Positions 33,314 through 46,422 are shown, counted from the stretch's first letter. The stretch is DNA of 64,000 nt from Bdellovibrio sp. (GCA_036676395.1 JAKFCY010000002.1:2624001-2688000), one strand, 5' to 3'. Program-made: numbers and translations. The notes: generated from the sequence alone by a model not told the origin.

Positions 33314-34035
33314 TCGAAATTGTTAATTTTAAAAAAGCATTCGGTACTAAAATCATTCACGAAAATGTCAGTTTTTATGTTAAAAAAGGTGAATGTCTTG
33401 GTTTAGTTGGCGGTTCAGGAGCTGGCAAGTCAGTGATTCTTCGTAGTCTGATCGGCTTAGAAAAACCTGATTCAGGGCAAATCCTAATCAACGGTGTAGA
33501 TATCGTTCCATTAAATGAACAAGAACTTATTCCCGTCAGAAAACAAGTGGCTTACGCCTTTCAGGGCGGAGCACTTTTTGATTCGATGACTGTCTATGAA
33601 AATTTAGCCTATCCGCTGCGAGCCCATACCGAACTGGTCGAAACTGAAATTGCTGAAAAAATTCATCATCAATTGGCTGAATTTGGCTTAGAAAAATCGA
33701 TTCATCTTTATCCAGGTGAACTTTCTGGCGGTATGCAAAAACGTATTGGATTAGCACGTGCCGTGATTATGCAGCCTGAAATTATTCTCTATGATGAACC
33801 AACAGCAGGCTTAGATCCCTATAACACTCGAAAGATCCAGGAGTTAATTCTGCGTTTAAAAGCTACTGGTGTAACGGCCATTTTAGTAACTCATGATATT
33901 CCAACAGCAATGGCAGTTTGTGATAAATTCGCATTTCTAAAAGACAAAGTGATCGCCGAACAAGGCACCATTGATCAATTATTAAGTCGCGACAACAGCC
34001 TGATTCAACAATTTATAGAAGGTAACATCTTATGA
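33304..34035 (+). CDS. mlaF: MlaF-family ABC ATPase
   Basis: GGSGAGKS, FQGGALFDSMTV, LSGGMQKR and YDEPTAGLDP motifs. Confidence 0.93.
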   Translation: MALIEIVNFKKAFGTKIIHENVSFYVKKGECLGLVGGSGAGKSVILRSLIGLEKPDSGQILINGVDIVPLNEQELIPVRKQVAYAFQGGALFDSMTVYENLAYPLRAHTELVETEIAEKIHHQLAEFGLEKSIHLYPGELSGGMQKRIGLARAVIMQPEIILYDEPTAGLDPYNTRKIQELILRLKATGVTAILVTHDIPTAMAVCDKFAFLKDKVIAEQGTIDQLLSRDNSLIQQFIEGNIL

Positions 34036-34796
34036 CAAAACTTAAAGTCGGTCTATTTTTAGCGTTGGGACTAATCGTTTTAGTAATTTCTGTATTCATG
34101 TTGGGTGCTAATAAATCTGTATTTCAAAACTCTTACAGTATTAGTACGTATTTTGACTCTGTTCAGGGATTAAATAACGGCGCGGTCGTTTCATTGGCAG
34201 GTGTAAAAATCGGTAACGTTGAATCGATTGATTACGATGATGAAAAAAACCTGGTGCGCGTGATTTTTCTGATGGATGCGGCCTACGCGAAAAAAACAAA
34301 GTCAGATTCAATCGTTGAAATCAGAACTCAAGGTGCATTAGGTGATAAGTTTTTATATATCAAACCGGGTATTTCAGGAACTCCGCTGGAAAACCGCGGC
34401 GAACTAAAATCAGAATACGGCAATGATCTATTAGCCGTGTTAAATAAGCGCGGCAACGAAAGTGAAAAACTATTTGATACAATTCACAACTTAAACCTGA
34501 TCGTTAAAGGCCTAGCCGATCAAAACAAATTACCAAGCTTGATCAACAAGTTAGATCAAGCTGCCGGAAACTTAAACGACTCATCAGTTAAAATCAAACA
34601 AGCCTTAGCCGGAAACCGCTTAGAACACTCAATGACTAAAATGGATAACATCTTAGAAAAGATCGACAACGGCCAAGGCACATTGGGTGCTTTGATCAAC
34701 GACAGATCTCTACACGATCGCCTAAAATCAATCCTAGGCGCCGGCCAAAAACAACAAGCCGTCAAATCCATCATCAAATCCTCAGTCGACGAATAG
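34032..34796 (+). CDS. mlaD: MlaD/MCE domain protein
   Basis: N-terminal TM, VQGLNNGAVVSLAGVKIGNV, QGALGDKF and GQGTLGALI motifs. Confidence 0.9.
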   Translation: MTKLKVGLFLALGLIVLVISVFMLGANKSVFQNSYSISTYFDSVQGLNNGAVVSLAGVKIGNVESIDYDDEKNLVRVIFLMDAAYAKKTKSDSIVEIRTQGALGDKFLYIKPGISGTPLENRGELKSEYGNDLLAVLNKRGNESEKLFDTIHNLNLIVKGLADQNKLPSLINKLDQAAGNLNDSSVKIKQALAGNRLEHSMTKMDNILEKIDNGQGTLGALINDRSLHDRLKSILGAGQKQQAVKSIIKSSVDE

Positions 34797-34800
34797 CGTT

Positions 34801-34829
34801 TACCCCTCTATCTCAGGGGTATCGGTCAC
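34801..34829 (-). repeat. GTGACCGATACCCC copy 1 (34816-34829, minus) plus overlapping hairpin TACCCCT-ctatctc-AGGGGTA
   Basis: Read directly; contains the TGA stop of the transposase ORF. Confidence 0.85.
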
Positions 34830-35419
34830 GAACTCCACAGCTTCTGCCAGTGTACGACCGAAAGCCCACGTAAACGCATTTTCTGATAGGGAATAACTCC
34901 CGTGGCTTCTTTTTCATTAAGCTGAATATAATTTCTTAATATCACATACCCACGCCACCCATGCACAACCCGGGTAAACGGCCGAAACAACCACAACTTC
35001 ATCACCCGCTTTGCCGTTACTCCACGCTTCTCTGCTGGGGTATCGGTCACTTCGCGCAGTAGATTCTCTTTTTGCAGTTCTTGGGCGATTTGCCCTGCCA
35101 CAACCCGCATAAAATAATGCGACATCGCCCTTCGTGGAACCCTAATGTTGAGATGAATATGATCGAAGTTAATCGAACACTGATCAATTTTGATAAAGAA
35201 CCGTTTTGCATAACGATCAATAATACGCCGAACTATTTTATACGACCGCGGAGATCGAAAATTCAGTTTCAGTGCTTTTTTATCGGCCTTAAAGACGACG
35301 TGATGAGGTTTTCGGGTTGAAAGCGGACGAAACTTTCTGCCTTTACGTAGCTGGCGAAGGCTGCCACCGTGACTGTGTTTTAAGTTATATTTCTTAAGTG
35401 CGTGATTGATGTGACCCAT
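34826..35419 (-). CDS. HUH/Y1 tyrosine transposase (RAYT/IS200-TnpA superfamily), stand-alone
   Basis: Basic N-terminus, HHVVFK strand, HUH motif DHIHL, LW..RPFTRVV, candidate catalytic Tyr in YIQLN; no adjacent tnpB. Confidence 0.82.
   Translation of the reverse strand: MGHINHALKKYNLKHSHGGSLRQLRKGRKFRPLSTRKPHHVVFKADKKALKLNFRSPRSYKIVRRIIDRYAKRFFIKIDQCSINFDHIHLNIRVPRRAMSHYFMRVVAGQIAQELQKENLLREVTDTPAEKRGVTAKRVMKLWLFRPFTRVVHGWRGYVILRNYIQLNEKEATGVIPYQKMRLRGLSVVHWQKLWSS
35037..35050 (-). repeat. GTGACCGATACCCC copy 2, in frame inside the transposase gene (VTDTP)
   Basis: Exact 14-mer; shares the 17-mer GAAGTGACCGATACCCC with copy 5. Confidence 0.85.
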
Positions 35420-35424
35420 ACCCC
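35411..35424 (+). repeat. Motif copy 3, GTGACCCATACCCC (one mismatch), containing the transposase ATG
   Basis: 13/14 match; the mismatch is what makes ATG on the minus strand. Confidence 0.75.
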
Positions 35425-35521
35425 AGGGCGGTGTTCAAGAAGTGGCGCTGGGTGAAAACTGATTCTATGGCAGGTAGAGCGATCGAAGATACGGGTATCG
35501 AATGTGCTGGTCCGAAAAAAC

Positions 35522-35556
35522 AAAAAGCCTACGTTTCGTAAACGTAGGCTTTTTTT
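35522..35556. terminator. Bidirectional intrinsic terminator (15-bp perfect stem)
   Basis: AAAAAGCCTACGTTT-cgt-AAACGTAGGCTTTTT. Confidence 0.88.
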
Positions 35557-35557
35557 G

Positions 35558-35572
35558 GTGACCGATACCCCC
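35558..35572 (+). repeat. Motif copy 4, GTGACCGATACCCCC
   Basis: Exact 15-mer identical to 37760-37774. Confidence 0.85.
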
Positions 35573-35609
35573 AACACAACAACGACGTGGGGCTATGAGT
35601 TCCTTAAAA

Positions 35610-37646
35610 CTATTTTAAGTAAATATCTGTGTACGTCGTGTAAGTCGGACGTACCTTGGCAGAAATGTTTCTTGGGGCTAAACCCGGAAACTTCAACGCC
35701 ATTCTAACCGGAATACCATCGTTTAACTGCGCGCGAGCCTGTTGGTTATTCGAATCTTTTGCCCATGCACGGCCTAAGTAGAACAATCTGATCACACGTG
35801 AATCAGCGTATTCTTTAACGATCGCGTATGAGTTTAACACTTCTCTTGAACGGTTAATTTGATTCGCATAAAGATCACCTGGATTATCCAAACGATTTTC
35901 TAAACGCGCCTTATCGTTACCTGTGTGCTTAGCAGTATTGTAACCGAAAGTAATGTTTTTCAAGATTTTTTCAGGAGATGACAAATCACCCGTGTACGAT
36001 TTTGGTAATCTGATGTTCATCACTAATGCATAAGAACCTAATTCATAACGAAGTTTTTCGTTTTCGTTATAACGATCAGAATCTAATTCTACGTTAAAAT
36101 ACTTATTCACTAAACGTTGGTTACAAGCGATGCGGCCTGCTTCACAGTTCGTTAACGTCTCGATCACATGTTTAAAGTTTGGATGTTTACACGTTTCAGG
36201 AGCAGCGCACTCTTTATTCATGATCACAACATCTACGCCAATTGATTTATCAAAGCTGTTGATCCCTTTTGCTAAAGCATCACCCACCGGAGCTAAAACT
36301 CCTGATAAACCATCGATTGCTGGCAACACTGTCGCATGCATGTTTTCAACAAAGATTTCGCGCGAAGGAATGTTTAAAGTACGTTGTAAATCAGCTGTGT
36401 TTACATAGCTAGTTTCTGCAACTGGTTTAGATTCGTTACCTGGATTTTCTACATAGTATAAGAAATCTGCTGTAGCACCCGGGCTAAATACCGGACCATC
36501 TGTTTCGCGGCGTTTATGGCCAGAAAAAATAGTTACGAATTGTTCGTTAATTTTTCTTAAATTTTCAGATTGAAAACCCGTACAAGTAAGACCCGCATCA
36601 GTTTTACCTAAGCACGGAAAAACACCCACGATGCTTGTCCAACGCGTGCGGTATTTTGTGCGGTATTGATCTAACATCAAATGAGAAATACGGTTTACAC
36701 GCATTTCATTAATCACATCTGAAGTTAAACGCATATGATTCATTTCGCTAGGGTTAATGTTACCCACTGATTTCATCACTTTAGTTAAACCTGTCATCGC
36801 CAAACCAGGAACATTGTTAACATTTTTTACTATGATGTTATTTGCAATCGCATTCACTGAAGCACAAGAAGCGATTAGACCATTTTTAACTGCGCGGTCA
36901 TTCATTTCTTTTTGTGTGTAAACTTTATTTGGATCACCGAATAATTTTTCTTTAGCGCCAGTATATAAGTTAGATAAAAAACCTTTTCCTTCAGTGATGC
37001 TTTCAATCGACGGATCATCACAAAGCGCTTTGGCTTTAGGTAATAATTTATGAATTTCGGCTAAGTTACCTTTTTCAAGAAAAGACCAACCAAGTTCAGC
37101 ATCTATAGAACCCCAGTAAACCGGGCCAAGACCGACTATATTTTCAACGCGGGCTACATAGCTTTGAACTTTTTCTGCATCTTCAGCGTTGTACGCCATC
37201 GACGGATGGAATTTAAAGTTGAACATTGAATCGTAGTACCAAGTCATCACCATTTGCCCACCCATTGAGTAAGCTAAAATAGAGATTTTGTCTTCTGGCC
37301 CTAGTTCAGGAATAAGCGGCTTAGCGCTGCCATTACCTAAAATAAAATCTTTATTGAATTTATCAGCGATTAAATGCGGTTCCCAGTTAATTCCGGTTTT
37401 AGCATCATTAACTGCAGCACCTACCGGATATGTCCAATTGAATAATTCATATTCGTAGGCCGGATCGATCTCTTTCAGAGTTTTTCCGACAAACGTGTGA
37501 AACTCACCGTAAGATTCTGCATTACCACGCACGCCGTGCATTGTGATGATGTAATGTTTTTTAGTCGTAGAACTTGGTGAACGTAATCCCAAGTATGAAC
37601 ACGACGAGATGAATGCAACCAGCATTAGCGATAGCAATAACTTCAT
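35610..37646 (-). CDS. Lipoprotein with an N-terminal alpha/beta-hydrolase-like (lipase/esterase) domain
   Basis: ISSC lipobox, MHGVRG oxyanion-type motif, AYSMGG nucleophile elbow; GGAG RBS. Confidence 0.75.
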   Translation of the reverse strand: MKLLLSLMLVAFISSCSYLGLRSPSSTTKKHYIITMHGVRGNAESYGEFHTFVGKTLKEIDPAYEYELFNWTYPVGAAVNDAKTGINWEPHLIADKFNKDFILGNGSAKPLIPELGPEDKISILAYSMGGQMVMTWYYDSMFNFKFHPSMAYNAEDAEKVQSYVARVENIVGLGPVYWGSIDAELGWSFLEKGNLAEIHKLLPKAKALCDDPSIESITEGKGFLSNLYTGAKEKLFGDPNKVYTQKEMNDRAVKNGLIASCASVNAIANNIIVKNVNNVPGLAMTGLTKVMKSVGNINPSEMNHMRLTSDVINEMRVNRISHLMLDQYRTKYRTRWTSIVGVFPCLGKTDAGLTCTGFQSENLRKINEQFVTIFSGHKRRETDGPVFSPGATADFLYYVENPGNESKPVAETSYVNTADLQRTLNIPSREIFVENMHATVLPAIDGLSGVLAPVGDALAKGINSFDKSIGVDVVIMNKECAAPETCKHPNFKHVIETLTNCEAGRIACNQRLVNKYFNVELDSDRYNENEKLRYELGSYALVMNIRLPKSYTGDLSSPEKILKNITFGYNTAKHTGNDKARLENRLDNPGDLYANQINRSREVLNSYAIVKEYADSRVIRLFYLGRAWAKDSNNQQARAQLNDGIPVRMALKFPGLAPRNISAKVRPTYTTYTDIYLK

Positions 37647-37759
37647 AGTTTCTCCATAGAGTAGAGTGTTTTATTAATAAAAACTTTGCGCGAAAACTAA
37701 TTCACGCGTCCTTATTCAGTATATGTGTTTATGTTTGGATAAAAAGTCCAGAAACGGAA

Positions 37760-37774
37760 GTGACCGATACCCCC
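37760..37774 (+). repeat. Motif copy 5, GTGACCGATACCCCC
   Basis: Exact 15-mer direct repeat of 35558-35572. Confidence 0.85.
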
Positions 37775-37821: not shown

Positions 37822-38268
37822 CTATTTTTTGATAAATTTTTGTAGATTGGTTTTAAATTCTTCGTTGTCGGCGGCTGGAACGTTTTTGCGGTCCATGGTT
37901 ACGCGAATTTCTTTTACCGCGCCGGCTGAAAATTTTTGATTTACGGTATTTTTTATAGTCTCAGACATAAAATTAATTTGCGTTAACCATGTCGAGTTTT
38001 TAACCCACAAAGTTAATACACCCTGATGAAATGAAACCGGTTCGCAGTGCTGTGCCGTTGTTGGACCGACGATGTCTTTCCAGTTCATCCAAAGCTTCCA
38101 GCGTAAAAACTGATCGGCCATGTGATCAATGCTGAAATCTTGTTTTTTCCATGACGAACCAGTGGCATCTTTTTTAAAACCTAATGAAGTTTTACCTTGC
38201 CCTGAAAGCAAGCTCTGTAGCACTTCTGCGCTGGTTTTGAATTTTGGTTTACGGTCTCGTTCGCTCAC
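37822..38268 (-). CDS. DUF721/DciA-like protein
   Basis: WKDIVGP..AQHCEPV....GVLTLWVKNSTWLTQINF pattern; GTG start inferred. Confidence 0.75.
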   Translation of the reverse strand: MSERDRKPKFKTSAEVLQSLLSGQGKTSLGFKKDATGSSWKKQDFSIDHMADQFLRWKLWMNWKDIVGPTTAQHCEPVSFHQGVLTLWVKNSTWLTQINFMSETIKNTVNQKFSAGAVKEIRVTMDRKNVPAADNEEFKTNLQKFIKK

Positions 38269-38327
38269 ACAAAAACTGTATCCTATCCCCTTGCTTTTTG
38301 CGATGGGAAAGCTTAGTTTTCGCAACT

Positions 38328-43102: not shown

Positions 43103-43115
43103 GTGACCGATACCC
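43103..43115 (+). repeat. Motif copy 6, GTGACCGATACCC (13 nt), in the tdk leader
   Basis: Shares the 15-mer TCGTGACCGATACCC with copy 1. Confidence 0.55.
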
Positions 43116-43195
43116 AAATTCTCACAGGTAATTTTCGAAGTTTCCAGAAGGAAATTTTTGCACGATGTGTCTGAAAATCGGTGAAAAGGCCTATA

Positions 43196-44624: not shown

Positions 44625-46422
44625 GTTGATCCACATCATAACCCAAATGATCTGCTAAGTGGTAAGCCATCAATTGTAATGGCACGACCGCGATTAATGG
44701 ATTTGTTGTCCATAACGCTTTCGGAAGCGAAAGATAAAACTCACTCATTGATTTTAAACCTTCATTTTCGCCAGTGCCGATAGAAATGATTTTTCCACCG
44801 CGGGCTTTAGCTTCTTGTAAATTACTGATCGTTTTATCAATCAGATCATCACTTGGAGCAACCACCACAATCGCCATGTCTTTATCAATCAATGCTAGCG
44901 GCCCATGCTTCATTTCGCCAGCGGCATAACCTTCAGCGTGCATATAAGCTAATTCTTTAAGTTTCAAAGCGCCTTCTAAAGCAATCGGAAAACTTACGCC
45001 GCGGCCTAAGAATAAAAAGCCTTTAAATTCACGAAGCTTAATGGCAGCTTCGTTAAAGTATTTATCATAAGCCAGTACTGTTTCCATTTGGCTAGGTACG
45101 GCTAATAAACTTTCAACAATCTGTTTTTCAGCTGCAGCCGTGATTCCGCCGCGCGCTTTAGCGATTTGCACCGCTAAAATATTTAACAATGACAATGTGC
45201 TTGAAAAAGCTTTAGTGCTGGCCACACCGACTTCAACGCCCGTGTTCATGTACATATGACCTAAAGCTTCGCGGTCAATTGAAGATTGCGCCACATTCGT
45301 GATGGATAAAGTTTGTGCCCCAAATTCTTTGGCTAATCGCACTGCAGCCAAAGTATCTGCCGTTTCACCACTTTGTGAAATAGTGATCACTAACGTGTTC
45401 GGTGGCAAAATCGGTTTACGGTAGCGAAATTCAGAGGCGATATCTGTTTCAACCGGAATTTTTGCGATTTGTTCGATAAGATATTTACCAACCATGGCTG
45501 CGTAATAACTTGTACCGCAGGCAATAAAAAATACGCGATCGATTTTTTTATACATTTCGGCAGTTTCATAACCGATATTTTTTAAATTGATTGAATGGGT
45601 GTCGGTATCGATAAACGGAGCAATCGCTTGCGCTACGGCACGCGGCTGTTCGTAAATTTCTTTTAACATGAAATGTTTAAAGCCTGCTTTTTCAACTTGG
45701 TCTTCTGACCAGTCGACAGTGACGATCTCTTTTTTGATCTCTTCACCTTGAGCGCTTAAAAATTTAATGTCAGAGCCATTGATGTGCACGATTTCACGGT
45801 CATTTAAATAAACGAATTTTTTTGTGTACTTAATAGCAGCTTGCACATCTGAAACTATGAAATGTTCTTTTTCGCCGATACCCGCAATTAATGGTGGGCC
45901 ATCTTTAAACGCGATTAATTCATTTGGAGATTTCTCCCACATCACTAAAATTGAAAACGCGCCGATGATTTTACCCAACGTATTTTTAACTGACTGAAGT
46001 AAATTCTGAGTTTTTTGAATATCTTCCCAGATTAAGTGAGCTACTAATTCAGAATCAGTGTCAGATTTAATCTCTGTGCCTTTTTTAATAAGCTCGGCTT
46101 TGATTTCTAAATAGTTTTCGATAATACCGTTGTGCACTAGGCTGATTTCACCAGCTTGGTGAGGATGAGCATTACGTTCATTTGGAGCGCCGTGCGTGGC
46201 CCAACGCGTGTGACCGATACCTAAGTGACCGTTAAAAGACTCAGAGATGATTTTTTCTTCTAAATTTTTTAACTTGCCTTGGGCACGTACGCGTTTGGTT
46301 TTGCCGTCATGAATAACTGCAATACCGGCGCTATCGTAACCGCGATATTCAAGTTTTTTTAAGCCATCAATAATAATTTTTTTAGGTTCTTGCGGCCCCA
46401 AGTAACCAACGATTCCACACAT
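44590..46422 (-). CDS. glmS: Glutamine-fructose-6-phosphate transaminase
   Basis: MCGIVG, GHTRWATHG and PRNLAKSVTVE motifs. Confidence 0.97.
   Translation of the reverse strand: MCGIVGYLGPQEPKKIIIDGLKKLEYRGYDSAGIAVIHDGKTKRVRAQGKLKNLEEKIISESFNGHLGIGHTRWATHGAPNERNAHPHQAGEISLVHNGIIENYLEIKAELIKKGTEIKSDTDSELVAHLIWEDIQKTQNLLQSVKNTLGKIIGAFSILVMWEKSPNELIAFKDGPPLIAGIGEKEHFIVSDVQAAIKYTKKFVYLNDREIVHINGSDIKFLSAQGEEIKKEIVTVDWSEDQVEKAGFKHFMLKEIYEQPRAVAQAIAPFIDTDTHSINLKNIGYETAEMYKKIDRVFFIACGTSYYAAMVGKYLIEQIAKIPVETDIASEFRYRKPILPPNTLVITISQSGETADTLAAVRLAKEFGAQTLSITNVAQSSIDREALGHMYMNTGVEVGVASTKAFSSTLSLLNILAVQIAKARGGITAAAEKQIVESLLAVPSQMETVLAYDKYFNEAAIKLREFKGFLFLGRGVSFPIALEGALKLKELAYMHAEGYAAGEMKHGPLALIDKDMAIVVVAPSDDLIDKTISNLQEAKARGGKIISIGTGENEGLKSMSEFYLSLPKALWTTNPLIAVVPLQLMAYHLADHLGYDVDQPRNLAKSVTVE

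Follow-up and report, generated by a model that had tools for sequence, protein, structure and literature searches.

The region described here lies in a 64,000-nt stretch of DNA from Bdellovibrio sp. (GCA_036676395.1, JAKFCY010000002.1:2624001-2688000), which was analysed as a whole and is called the window, and it covers positions 34,801 to 37,774, where a gene for a small Y1/HUH protein is found together with several copies of a 14-nt motif. Positions without a contig name are coordinates of the window; G000 is the Bdellovibrio sp. genome analysed (3.4 Mb), other G codes are related genomes, and C and L codes denote contigs and loci, respectively. The gene order is mlaEFD (+), Y1 gene (-), a 678-aa open reading frame (ORF) (-), dciA (-) and trmFO (+), with the MlaD gene (34032-34796, +) as the neighbour of the Y1 gene and the DciA gene, formerly DUF721 (37822-38325, -), as the far neighbour. 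The Y1 gene occupies 34826..35419 on the minus strand, and the ORF list, Pfam family PF01797, a structural model and Foldseek matches identify it as a RAYT-like gene of the TnpA-Y1 type encoding 197 amino acids. The region had been singled out by a prediction made from the sequence alone (the original prediction), which took it for a candidate gene-cassette system with a dedicated HUH recognition site; the 197-aa ORF with the DHIHL and YIQLN motifs that it named is indeed present at 34826-35419(-).

A scan of the window located the exact 14-mer GTGACCGATACCCC at 34816-34829(-), 35037-35050(-), 35558-35571(+) and 37760-37773(+), and a copy with one mismatch, GTGACCCATACCCC, at 35411-35424(+). 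All five copies listed in the original prediction are where it had placed them, with the one mismatch at 35411, and its list is extended by two weaker matches, at 43103(+) and 46210(+). The seven matches at <=2 mismatches compare with 0.06 expected in the window, and none of 100 shuffles reached seven. The G000 genome holds nine exact 14-mers, four of them at the Y1 locus, and the reversed pattern, used as a control, gave one match at <=1 mismatch in this genome.

Three of the copies overlap the Y1 ORF, at its start codon, in its interior and at its stop codon. The terminal 3' copy (34816..34829, -) reads GTGACCGATACCCC on the gene strand, holds the stop codon TGA and has its CCCC-3' end directed outward to mlaD. 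The internal copy (35037..35050, -) is in frame and encodes VTDTP, in a variable loop at about residues 121-147; it and the stop-codon copy are in different reading frames of the gene. The start-codon copy (35411..35424, +) is inverted relative to the gene, the gene strand reading GGGGT-ATG-GGT-CAC, and its single mismatch (C->G) is what makes the ATG of the Y1 gene. An outer 5' copy (35558..35571, +) with the same orientation as the start-codon copy lies 147 nt farther upstream, in the 3' untranslated region of the 678-aa gene, and is separated from the Y1 gene by a hairpin resembling an intrinsic terminator (35522..35554, -) 3' of the 678-aa gene. The distal solo copy (37760..37773, +) has its CCCC-3' end directed outward to dciA. 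The outermost copies leave 19 and 48 nt to mlaD and dciA, respectively.

The 14-mer shows no self-complementarity, so that its earlier description as a weak palindrome has to be dropped; the statements that it lacks the GTAG foot of classical repetitive extragenic palindromes (REPs), and that there is no tnpB beside the gene, are correct. The contexts of all copies in the G000 genome share nothing past the motif, so no longer repeat was found around it, and the 139-nt stretch around a solo copy at C2:1600646 matches elsewhere only through the motif. Local hairpins of the motif with its own flank were seen only as partial complements of 6-7 bp at some copies (in G016 and at the 34816 copy) and were inconsistent. 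No sigma-70-like promoter for the Y1 gene was found in 35425-35520.

The protein is predicted to have the Y1/HUH fold. Its catalytic set consists of the HUH residues D86-H87-I88-H89 and the tyrosine Y164, with N168 at +4, and an alignment of 58 homologs shows no variation at D86, H87, H89, Y164 and N168. The match to PF01797 (Y1_Tnp) is a marginal pass with 24.0 bits versus a cut-off of 23, and the match to the NCBIfam IS200 equivalog is well short of its cut-off (22.3 versus 55 bits). An AlphaFold2 model on the 58-homolog alignment has a predicted local distance difference test score (pLDDT) of 82.8, with the HUH motif on strand 87-93 and Y164 and N168 on helix 154-173; the pLDDT is 53-57 in the loop that holds the internal motif copy, between the post-HUH helix and the last strand. 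With Foldseek, 29 matches in the PDB had E<=0.001; the best 20 of these 29 are without exception Y1 transposases, including IS200 (2f4f), ISHp608 (2a6m), ISDra2 and TnpA-REP (4er8), of which 4er8 has the highest query TM-score (0.51) among the best 20 of 29. A profile search of the PDB reached ISHp608 only at an E value of 0.056, and no helix-turn-helix (HTH) family of Pfam matched the 197-aa protein at E<=0.1. The hidden Markov model search and the structure prediction that had been proposed as a check thus both came out in favour of a Y1 protein. The homologs found in databases are from Bdellovibrio-like bacteria, the closest named one being from 'Bdellovibrio sp. qaytius' (87% identity), and several of them are labelled 'REP element-mobilizing transposase RayT' by the Joint Genome Institute.

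Of 24 other genomes of the genus, 14 contain the exact motif, and it is missing from all 16 genomes examined from 14 other genera of the order; its congeneric copies lie mostly within or beside homologs of the Y1 gene. Nineteen distinct homolog loci (proteins 44-58% identical) were compared, and internal copies were counted at <=2 mismatches. An inverted copy at the start codon was found at 17 of these loci, as was a direct internal copy, which lies in the indel-rich variable linker between the post-HUH helix and the last strand; a further copy at or just past the stop codon was present at 7 of the 19. The two loci without copies are one truncated gene and one partial gene. The ATG of the homologs lies within the motif or straight after ...GGTCAC (L012, L014, L015, L016). 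Among close relatives, the copy that overlaps the stop codon was also found in G018, G016, G052, G041 and G062, and the stop codon TGA of a homolog in G006 (C19), read from the sequence, likewise lies within the motif. The outer 5' copy is present in seven close relatives and missing from G067.

When 20 genes were aligned by codon, conservation among the 482 windows of 14 nt was highest at the internal 14-mer (0.964, versus a median of 0.68), the third positions of which are conserved at >=0.9, compared with a gene mean of 0.52 (standard deviation, sd, 0.17). The internal copy is thus under selection for its nucleotides and not for the encoded VTDTP, in agreement with the different reading frames of the internal and stop-codon copies. 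Taken together, these comparisons characterise the motif as a dedicated site that is co-inherited with this Y1 subfamily across the genus, and the association of motif and homologous transposase loci that the original prediction required is thus present.

The genome contains seven PF01797 genes. The six others are located on C2 at 2070794-2071492(-), 1774687-1775304(+), 375403-376017(+), 676600-677352(+) and 2435933-2436637(+), and on C3 at 34663-35337(-). Paralog B has the same motif as A, the present gene, paralog C has GGGGCAATGCC, and paralogs D and E have GGGGCGGTGCC, with one or two inverted 5' copies and two or three direct copies downstream; in paralog D the direct copies are in all three reading frames, which likewise speaks for selection on the nucleotides. 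The layout of inverted copies on the 5' side and direct copies inside the ORF and/or near the stop codon is common to C, D and E, and paralogs F and G are each flanked by inverted repeats of their own (21-29 bp), the 3' copy of which overlaps the stop codon. The D/E 12-mer has only seven sites in the genome, and D and E together hold eight copies of >=10 nt (five and three, respectively), which means that this motif is largely confined to the two genes. The layout is thus general among the paralog subfamilies of G000, with different motifs. In four other genera no GC-rich inverted repeat of >=10 nt was found that joins the 5' region to the gene interior, in a crude scan of 19 loci with homologs of 25-35% identity (G029, G040, G034, G036) at a GC content >=0.5 and with exact matches. 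The replication terminus is near 1.47 Mb on C2, and four of the six Y1 genes on this contig are co-oriented with replication, a number too small to mean anything.

Some copies of the motif lie away from Y1 genes. The near-copy at 43103-43116(+), with one mismatch, is located 12 nt upstream of a minus-strand ATG and also occurs in G018. The near-copy at 46210-46223(+), with two mismatches, recurs in G018, G010 and G020 at a similar distance from trmFO/dciA and is probably conserved coding sequence. An exact copy at C2:259336-259349 lies at a possible GTG start of an ORF that would again read VTDTP and that looks TsaA/TrmO-like, a label read off the translation by eye. At C2:2057590-2057603, and in L046 (G016:C17) at 2173, 8150 and 13076, the exact 14-mer is followed by TTGGATA within paralogous genes that resemble surface-protein genes. 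The members of this family have 1600-2100 amino acids, and the three direct copies in G016:C17 fall in three 1600-aa paralogs with conserved flanks; such dispersed copies had been considered as cassette boundaries, and this was rejected for the G016:C17 and C2:2057590 copies, which are a coding feature of one gene family.

The 678-aa gene (35610..37646, -) encodes a predicted lipoprotein with a lipase/esterase-like appearance: the translation shows a signal peptide with a cysteine and an AYSMGG nucleophile elbow as in alpha/beta hydrolases. There is no Pfam or NCBIfam match, and a feature search pointed to PGAP1/DUF676/LCAT clusters (score 0.90, 171 of 256 features shared), which is a lead only. 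Four weaker matches to this ORF exist elsewhere in G000. The gene lies between the Y1 gene and dciA in G000, G018, G052, G041, G016 and G062. G067 has the gene and its terminator at this position but lacks the Y1 gene, and no match to the motif was found there at <=3 mismatches. The terminator-like hairpin is kept, with changes on both arms, in G016, G062, G052 and G041 as well as in the Y1-less G067. G000, G018, G052 and G041 have the distal copy at 37760, which G016, G062 and G067 lack, and the homology of G016 with G000 and G018 ends at the point of this copy. Homologs of the 678-aa protein with 44-48% identity are encoded in G009, G023 and G004, and no motif or Y1 gene was found in the DNA examined around them. 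The proposed comparison of synteny thus shows that the 678-aa gene occurs without the motif in G067, as do its homologs in these three genomes within the DNA examined.

Judging from this distribution, the lipase-like gene is a resident chromosomal gene that predates the element or is independent of it; the Y1 core was inserted next to it or, in G067, lost, and the copies at 35558 and 37760 are bare 14-mers seeded nearby. The mlaD-dciA gap appears to have received such elements repeatedly. Eight congeneric genomes have the two genes side by side; six of these have 12-69 nt between them, and the gap is wider in G017 (157 nt) and G007 (273 nt). In G011, G012 and G009 the gap is occupied by Y1 genes from different subfamilies, and G008 has a distant Y1 gene beside dciA (mlaD was outside the DNA examined). 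The gap in L023 (G006), L029 (G017) and L113:1400-1470 (G067) contains hairpins or fragments of other repeat families, and these repeats (GGTGCCAGG, GGTACGGCCTACC) resemble those of paralogs G and F. The different Y1 genes and the repeat hairpins mark the gap as a hotspot. An alignment of G000 with G052, G016, G062 and G067 revealed a poorly alignable intergenic stretch and no clean insertion. Contigs from three soil metagenome runs (X4, X5, X6) contain the block in the same order, with no joint that skips any part of it; at 35423, the edge of the start-codon copy, a low-depth contig of X6 ends loosely or joins back to 35342.

The ends of the element can be read from repeated copies. Four contig ends of G006 show 100% identity as far as the last base of ...GTGACCGATACCCC and then continue into three different flanks, the assembly being broken there because the Y1 gene is repeated; L062 and L066, two of these ends, share another 42 nt past the motif. 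At six orthologous loci, the 9-29 nt from the mlaD stop codon to the CCCC end are unalignable, and the sequence from the motif inward is conserved. The element thus has an end at ...CCCC-3'. Inverted pairs of copies 28 and 39 nt apart were found elsewhere (L044, L045) and would form hairpins with a 14-bp stem. In G024, a metagenome-assembled genome, two contigs (L044:1841-2205, at the end of C21, and L081:1-2171, C136) have a common flank and one motif copy, differ thereafter and later rejoin: the L044 allele has 39 nt, an inverted copy and 86 nt, and the L081 allele has 1945 nt with a gene for a 591-aa transglutaminase-like lipoprotein. This is a single case, and the alleles could be strain variation or an assembly artefact.

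With respect to mobility, the Y1 locus is orthologous in at least seven genomes, with 78-95% protein identity. This vertical inheritance, together with a within-genome identity of the paralogs of <=50% (the nearest to the present protein has 49.5%), argues for a domesticated state at this locus, whereas the identical ends in G006 and the many copies in G005 (up to 12 matches) and in G013, G015 and G019 (10 each) argue for mobility elsewhere. Whether such a gene is still transposing or acts in place like a domesticated RAYT differs between genomes.

A new observation concerns genes whose 3' ends face an outward terminal copy: over about 80-140 codons, their silent sites are shifted from T to C and from G to A. 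The genes of G000 with >=200 aa (2220 ORFs) were ranked by the C+A content at third positions of their last 60 codons. The mlaD tail reaches 0.82 (mean 0.489, sd 0.08) and is ranked 1-2; its last 20 codons contain no T or G at any third position. The strand-polar skew extends over the 3' part of the gene (34380..34796, +), fades over about 100-140 codons in G000 and about 80 in G012, and is also visible at all codon positions as a keto skew of -0.267 (z = -3.3). The top ten of the 2220 ORFs also include both neighbours of paralog F and the left neighbour of paralog G; the C+A-rich tails belong to genes at C2:2435132-2435839(+), C2:2436654-2437631(-) and C3:33362-34642(+).

The mlaD tail was compared across 22 genomes by its composition. 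In seven genomes with an intact Y1 gene and a facing copy, the C/T counts among the 60 third positions are 17-28/3-11, namely 27/6 in G000, 27/7 in G018, 24/6 in G041, 21/9 in G062, 20/11 in G052, 17/11 in G016 and 28/3 in G012, which represents an independent lineage and shows the strongest effect. Eleven genomes that have no Y1 gene and no hairpin like a terminal inverted repeat (TIR) at the site give counts of 7-15/15-23. G011, with an apparently broken Y1 gene and no copy facing mlaD, has 13/13 and no skew, and intermediate values were found for G067 (16/13) and G017 (17/9).

A milder form of the skew is present in the last 40 codons of dciA (37825..37944, -), as judged from the C/T counts at third positions. 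These are 13/7 in G000, 14/7 in G018, 13/8 in G041, 23/3 in G012 and 15/9 in G011, where a copy faces dciA, and 5-6/15-16 in G016, G062 and G067, which have no distal copy. C is thus found at 13-14 of 40 positions in three of the four close relatives with the distal copy versus 5-6 in the three without it, and at 2-10 of 40 in all 19 genomes without a facing copy. Convergent transcription cannot account for the skew on the dciA side, since dciA is transcribed in the same direction as the 678-aa gene and the Y1 gene. The skew of mlaD and dciA is tied to the presence or absence of the facing copy across the relatives, with exceptions. Its polarity on the motif-bearing strand is A->G and C->T downstream of the motif. 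The available text of PMC3269015 describes such changes for mitochondrial strand-displacement gradients, on the strand that stays single-stranded, and by analogy the pattern seen here would be that of DNA that spends time single-stranded. A literature search in one library found no work linking RAYT or TnpA-REP to a flanking mutation bias.

From these observations we consider it likely that the region is a TIRtron/REPtron-like unit, which consists of a lineage-specific RAYT-like Y1 endonuclease gene and its cognate 14-nt site in the role of a terminal inverted repeat. Its inverted copies lie at and upstream of the start codon and its direct copies within the ORF and over the stop codon, the Y1 ORF extending from repeat to repeat; a few bare copies are found close by (35558, 37760) and at other places in the genome. 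The motif would be recognised by the enzyme in single-stranded form, possibly where two inverted copies anneal to a 14-bp stem. Nested DNA pairing is predicted, with a probability of 0.84 for the outer copy with the stop-codon copy and of 0.47 for the start-codon copy with the internal copy.

It has been established for IS608 and TnpA-REP that Y1 enzymes act on single strands and form a 5'-phosphotyrosine. On the basis of this chemistry, the enzyme would cut directly 3' of ...CCCC and remain attached to the 5' terminus of the flanking DNA outside the element. If the 3'-OH of the nick were then extended, or the duplex unwound from it, a few hundred bases of the flank might be exposed as single-stranded DNA on the motif-bearing strand; this strand would gather A->G and C->T changes, and the shift at the silent sites of mlaD and dciA, T->C and G->A, would be their trace. 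That the enzyme indeed nicks after ...CCCC-3' in vivo, and that outward strand displacement, comparable to a rolling-circle initiation directed away from the element, exposes the flank strand often enough to rewrite the silent sites of its housekeeping neighbours over 250-420 nt, is an extension of the TIRtron/REPtron-like reading that we regard as unlikely. If it were true, genes of the TIRYT/RAYT type would be local, strand-specific mutators, the ends of which could be mapped from genome sequence alone, and outward displacement from the outermost copies could occasionally carry adjacent genes, for example the lipase-like gene.

Several points weigh against the TIRtron/REPtron-like reading or against the proposed action of its enzyme, as do the departures from family signatures described in the comparison below. 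Similarity between copies continues on the 5' side for 36-39 nt past the start-codon copy and 3' identity stops at the motif, so that the motif forms the very 3' end of the element but is subterminal on the 5' side. The G024 polymorphism breaks at the inner (GTCAC) edge of the motif, not at the CCCC edge. The low identity of the paralogs in G000 gives no sign of recent transposition in this genome. With regard to the skew, G052 has the distal copy and a weak dciA skew (C/T 8/14), and the tail of the 678-aa gene, which faces the 35558 copy in a geometry like that of dciA, shows no shift in six copy-bearing genomes, even in G016 and G062, where the 35558 copy is the outermost; the tail in G067, which lacks this copy, looks like those with it. 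Among 94 distinct copies, the keto skew in the 300 nt downstream, on the motif strand, exceeds +2 sd in 18%, compared with 2% upstream, and 1% are below -2 sd; downstream of solo copies it is near zero. The skew could have another cause and merely accompany such elements. Biochemical data on any TIRYT were not found, and the terms TIRYT and TIRtron were met in only two descriptive works.

Three other explanations have to be weighed. The first is an ordinary, currently active insertion sequence (IS) of the IS200/IS605 type that moves as a unit and has the motifs simply as its ends. It would account for the several copies per genome in many relatives, with up to 12 in G005, for the identical ends at the contig breaks in G006, and for the presence of Y1 genes of different subfamilies in the mlaD-dciA gap (the G000 type, G011, G012 and G009) and of one beside dciA in G008. 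It is nevertheless rather doubtful, given that an inverted-repeat scan of the Y1 gene with 400 nt on either side found no subterminal hairpins, only pairs of the motif and the terminator of the 678-aa gene, that the IS200 equivalog was missed by more than 30 bits, that the copies are at most 50% identical within G000 and 83-92% identical in DNA within G024, that the locus is orthologous between genomes, and that the inverted-repeat geometry is unlike that of IS200/IS605. The transposase-plus-cargo unit or cassette system of the original prediction, with 34816 and 37773 as working ends and the 678-aa gene moved between copies, would fit the way in which inverted copies bracket the whole mlaD-dciA insert and leave only 19 and 48 nt, as compared with empty sites of 12-273 nt in eight relatives. 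It would also fit the skew, which in G000, G018 and G041 radiates from the two outermost copies but is lacking at the inner copy (35558), and the G024 contigs, in which a 39-nt spacer and an inverted copy are swapped for the 591-aa lipoprotein gene. These contigs may be a chimera, however, and G067 holds the 678-aa gene with neither Y1 gene nor motif, neither the motif nor a Y1 gene was found in the DNA examined around the distant homologs of that gene (G009, G023, G004), and the 678-aa tail is free of skew in G016 and G062 although these lack the distal copy. Neither a skipping joint in the metagenome contigs nor a cassette array was found. We regard mobilisation of neighbouring genes as a cassette as very unlikely, and on this point the original prediction is not supported.

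The remaining explanation places the function of the motif at the RNA level. The start-codon copy would pair with the internal copy in the mRNA and hide the start codon, so that the motif would be a translational brake by which the gene regulates itself, and read-through transcripts would in addition pair the outer copy with the stop-codon copy. The predicted RNA pairing is strong (0.90 for the start-codon with the internal copy and 0.998 for the outer with the stop-codon copy), the start codon lies within or directly after the motif in all subfamily A loci, and the D/E motif is largely confined to genes D and E, all of which would fit such a brake. It would leave unexplained, however, the copies past the stop codon, the solo copies and the hairpin dimers (L044, L045), the end of the G006 element exactly at the motif, and the DNA-strand-specific skew in the neighbours. 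Furthermore, the C->G change that makes the ATG is not compensated in the internal copy, and a terminator lies between the outer copy and the Y1 gene. An RNA-level function as the main explanation is thus distinctly improbable; within the TIRtron/REPtron-like unit, the same pairing in the mRNA could damp translation as a side effect.

The cellular role of 'domesticated transposases' of the RAYT/TIRYT type is an open question, and the locus offers a compact system for its study, with a 197-aa enzyme, a 14-nt non-palindromic site and a gene that starts and ends in that site. The several paralogs of G000 with their private sites form a natural panel for specificity. The silent-site skew is a read-out of activity that requires only sequence; if it is causal, it gives the side and the polarity of the cut, and such elements would locally mutate essential neighbouring genes. 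In addition, a false lead is removed, in that the lipase-like neighbour is not a mobile cassette.

A comparison with known systems begins with IS200/IS605 TnpA (IS608, ISDra2), with which the protein shares the HUH motif, a single tyrosine on the last helix and the predicted fold, and the element shares asymmetric ends, with a terminal site on the 3' side and a subterminal one on the 5' side. It differs in having Y---N in place of Y---Q, in lacking tnpB and in having ends that are inverted repeats on opposite strands and not two hairpins on one strand. RAYTs and REPtrons (E. coli yafM, PDB 4ER8; Pseudomonas REPIN-RAYT) are alike in the Y1 fold (TM-score 0.51 with 4er8), in cognate repeats that are inverted on both sides of the gene and in a repeat family for each paralog, and the hairpin dimers found elsewhere, with a 14-bp stem and a loop of 28-39 nt, resemble REPINs. 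However, the unit of the present repeat is not self-complementary, starts with GTGA and has no 5' GT[AG]G foot, and nine exact copies per genome contrast with tens to hundreds; there are also multiple paralogs per genome, and some genomes have several near-identical ends. The signature Y---NP, given for class 2 (RAYT) in the available text of PMC6006769 (Quentin et al. 2018), is replaced by YIQLNE in subfamily A and by YIERNI and YIVQNT in paralogs, and this counts among the points against the assignment. An integron-like cassette system would differ in its arrays, which are missing here, and in that the present cargo occurs without the site (G067) and the distal site is absent from G016 and G062. 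The gradients of strand displacement on the mitochondrial heavy strand, as far as the text of PMC3269015 was available, are alike in the A->G and C->T changes, which are strongest at third codon positions and graded with distance, and differ from the present shift, which covers about 250-420 nt and starts at a 14-nt site by a bacterial Y1 gene.

The closest likeness is to the TIRYT genes or TIRtrons, which are described in the available sections of PMC3733652 (Di Nocera, De Gregorio & Rocco 2013) as RAYT-like genes with terminal inverted repeats that are not REPs. According to these sections, the repeats are non-palindromic, may overlap the 5' or 3' end of the gene, often begin with GGGGWSAS and occur elsewhere in the genome in low or moderate number, as single, dimeric or grouped copies. 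The available sections of PMC6006769 equate most TIRYTs with TnpA-Y1 subclass 2.1, which is Group 1 of Bertels, and mention in-frame copies of the cognate REP in genes of subclass 2.4; for Group 1, the part of PMC5581495 (Bertels et al. 2017) at hand gives a flanking 16-mer with about 12 copies. As far as these excerpts go, the present unit shares with TIRYTs the RAYT-like Y1 gene with flanking non-REP terminal inverted repeats able to overlap the gene ends, the repeats that start with GGGG, the low to moderate copy number with single, dimeric and grouped copies, and the occurrence of several genes per genome, each with its own repeat. Against such an assignment stand the length of the repeat of 14 nt, the outer end of which, GGGGTATC, fits GGGGWSAS in GGGGT only, the sequence YIQLNE in place of Y---NP, and the lack of the C-terminal HTH of subclass 2.1, with 197 amino acids versus a median of 238. 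By the traits described there, the protein is also set apart from subclass 2.1 by DHIH in place of NH[VYF]H and by YIQLNE in place of YI(E/H)LNP, and the element differs from the described TIRtrons in that both the start and the stop codon lie within repeats and in having extra in-frame internal copies. No mention of Bdellovibrio-like hosts was found in the available parts of PMC3733652, PMC6006769 or related TIRYT/RAYT literature. Of the claim that the motif is a distinct HUH recognition or recombination site, the dedicated, co-inherited site is thus retained, and the distinct kind of system is not, as TIRYTs/TIRtrons and subclass 2.4 have, on the evidence of these excerpts, already been described. 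Within this framework, the unit appears, from its sequence features, to represent a Bdellovibrio-type clade of TnpA-Y1, with a minimal non-palindromic repeat that supplies both the start and the stop codon of its gene and has an in-frame internal copy.

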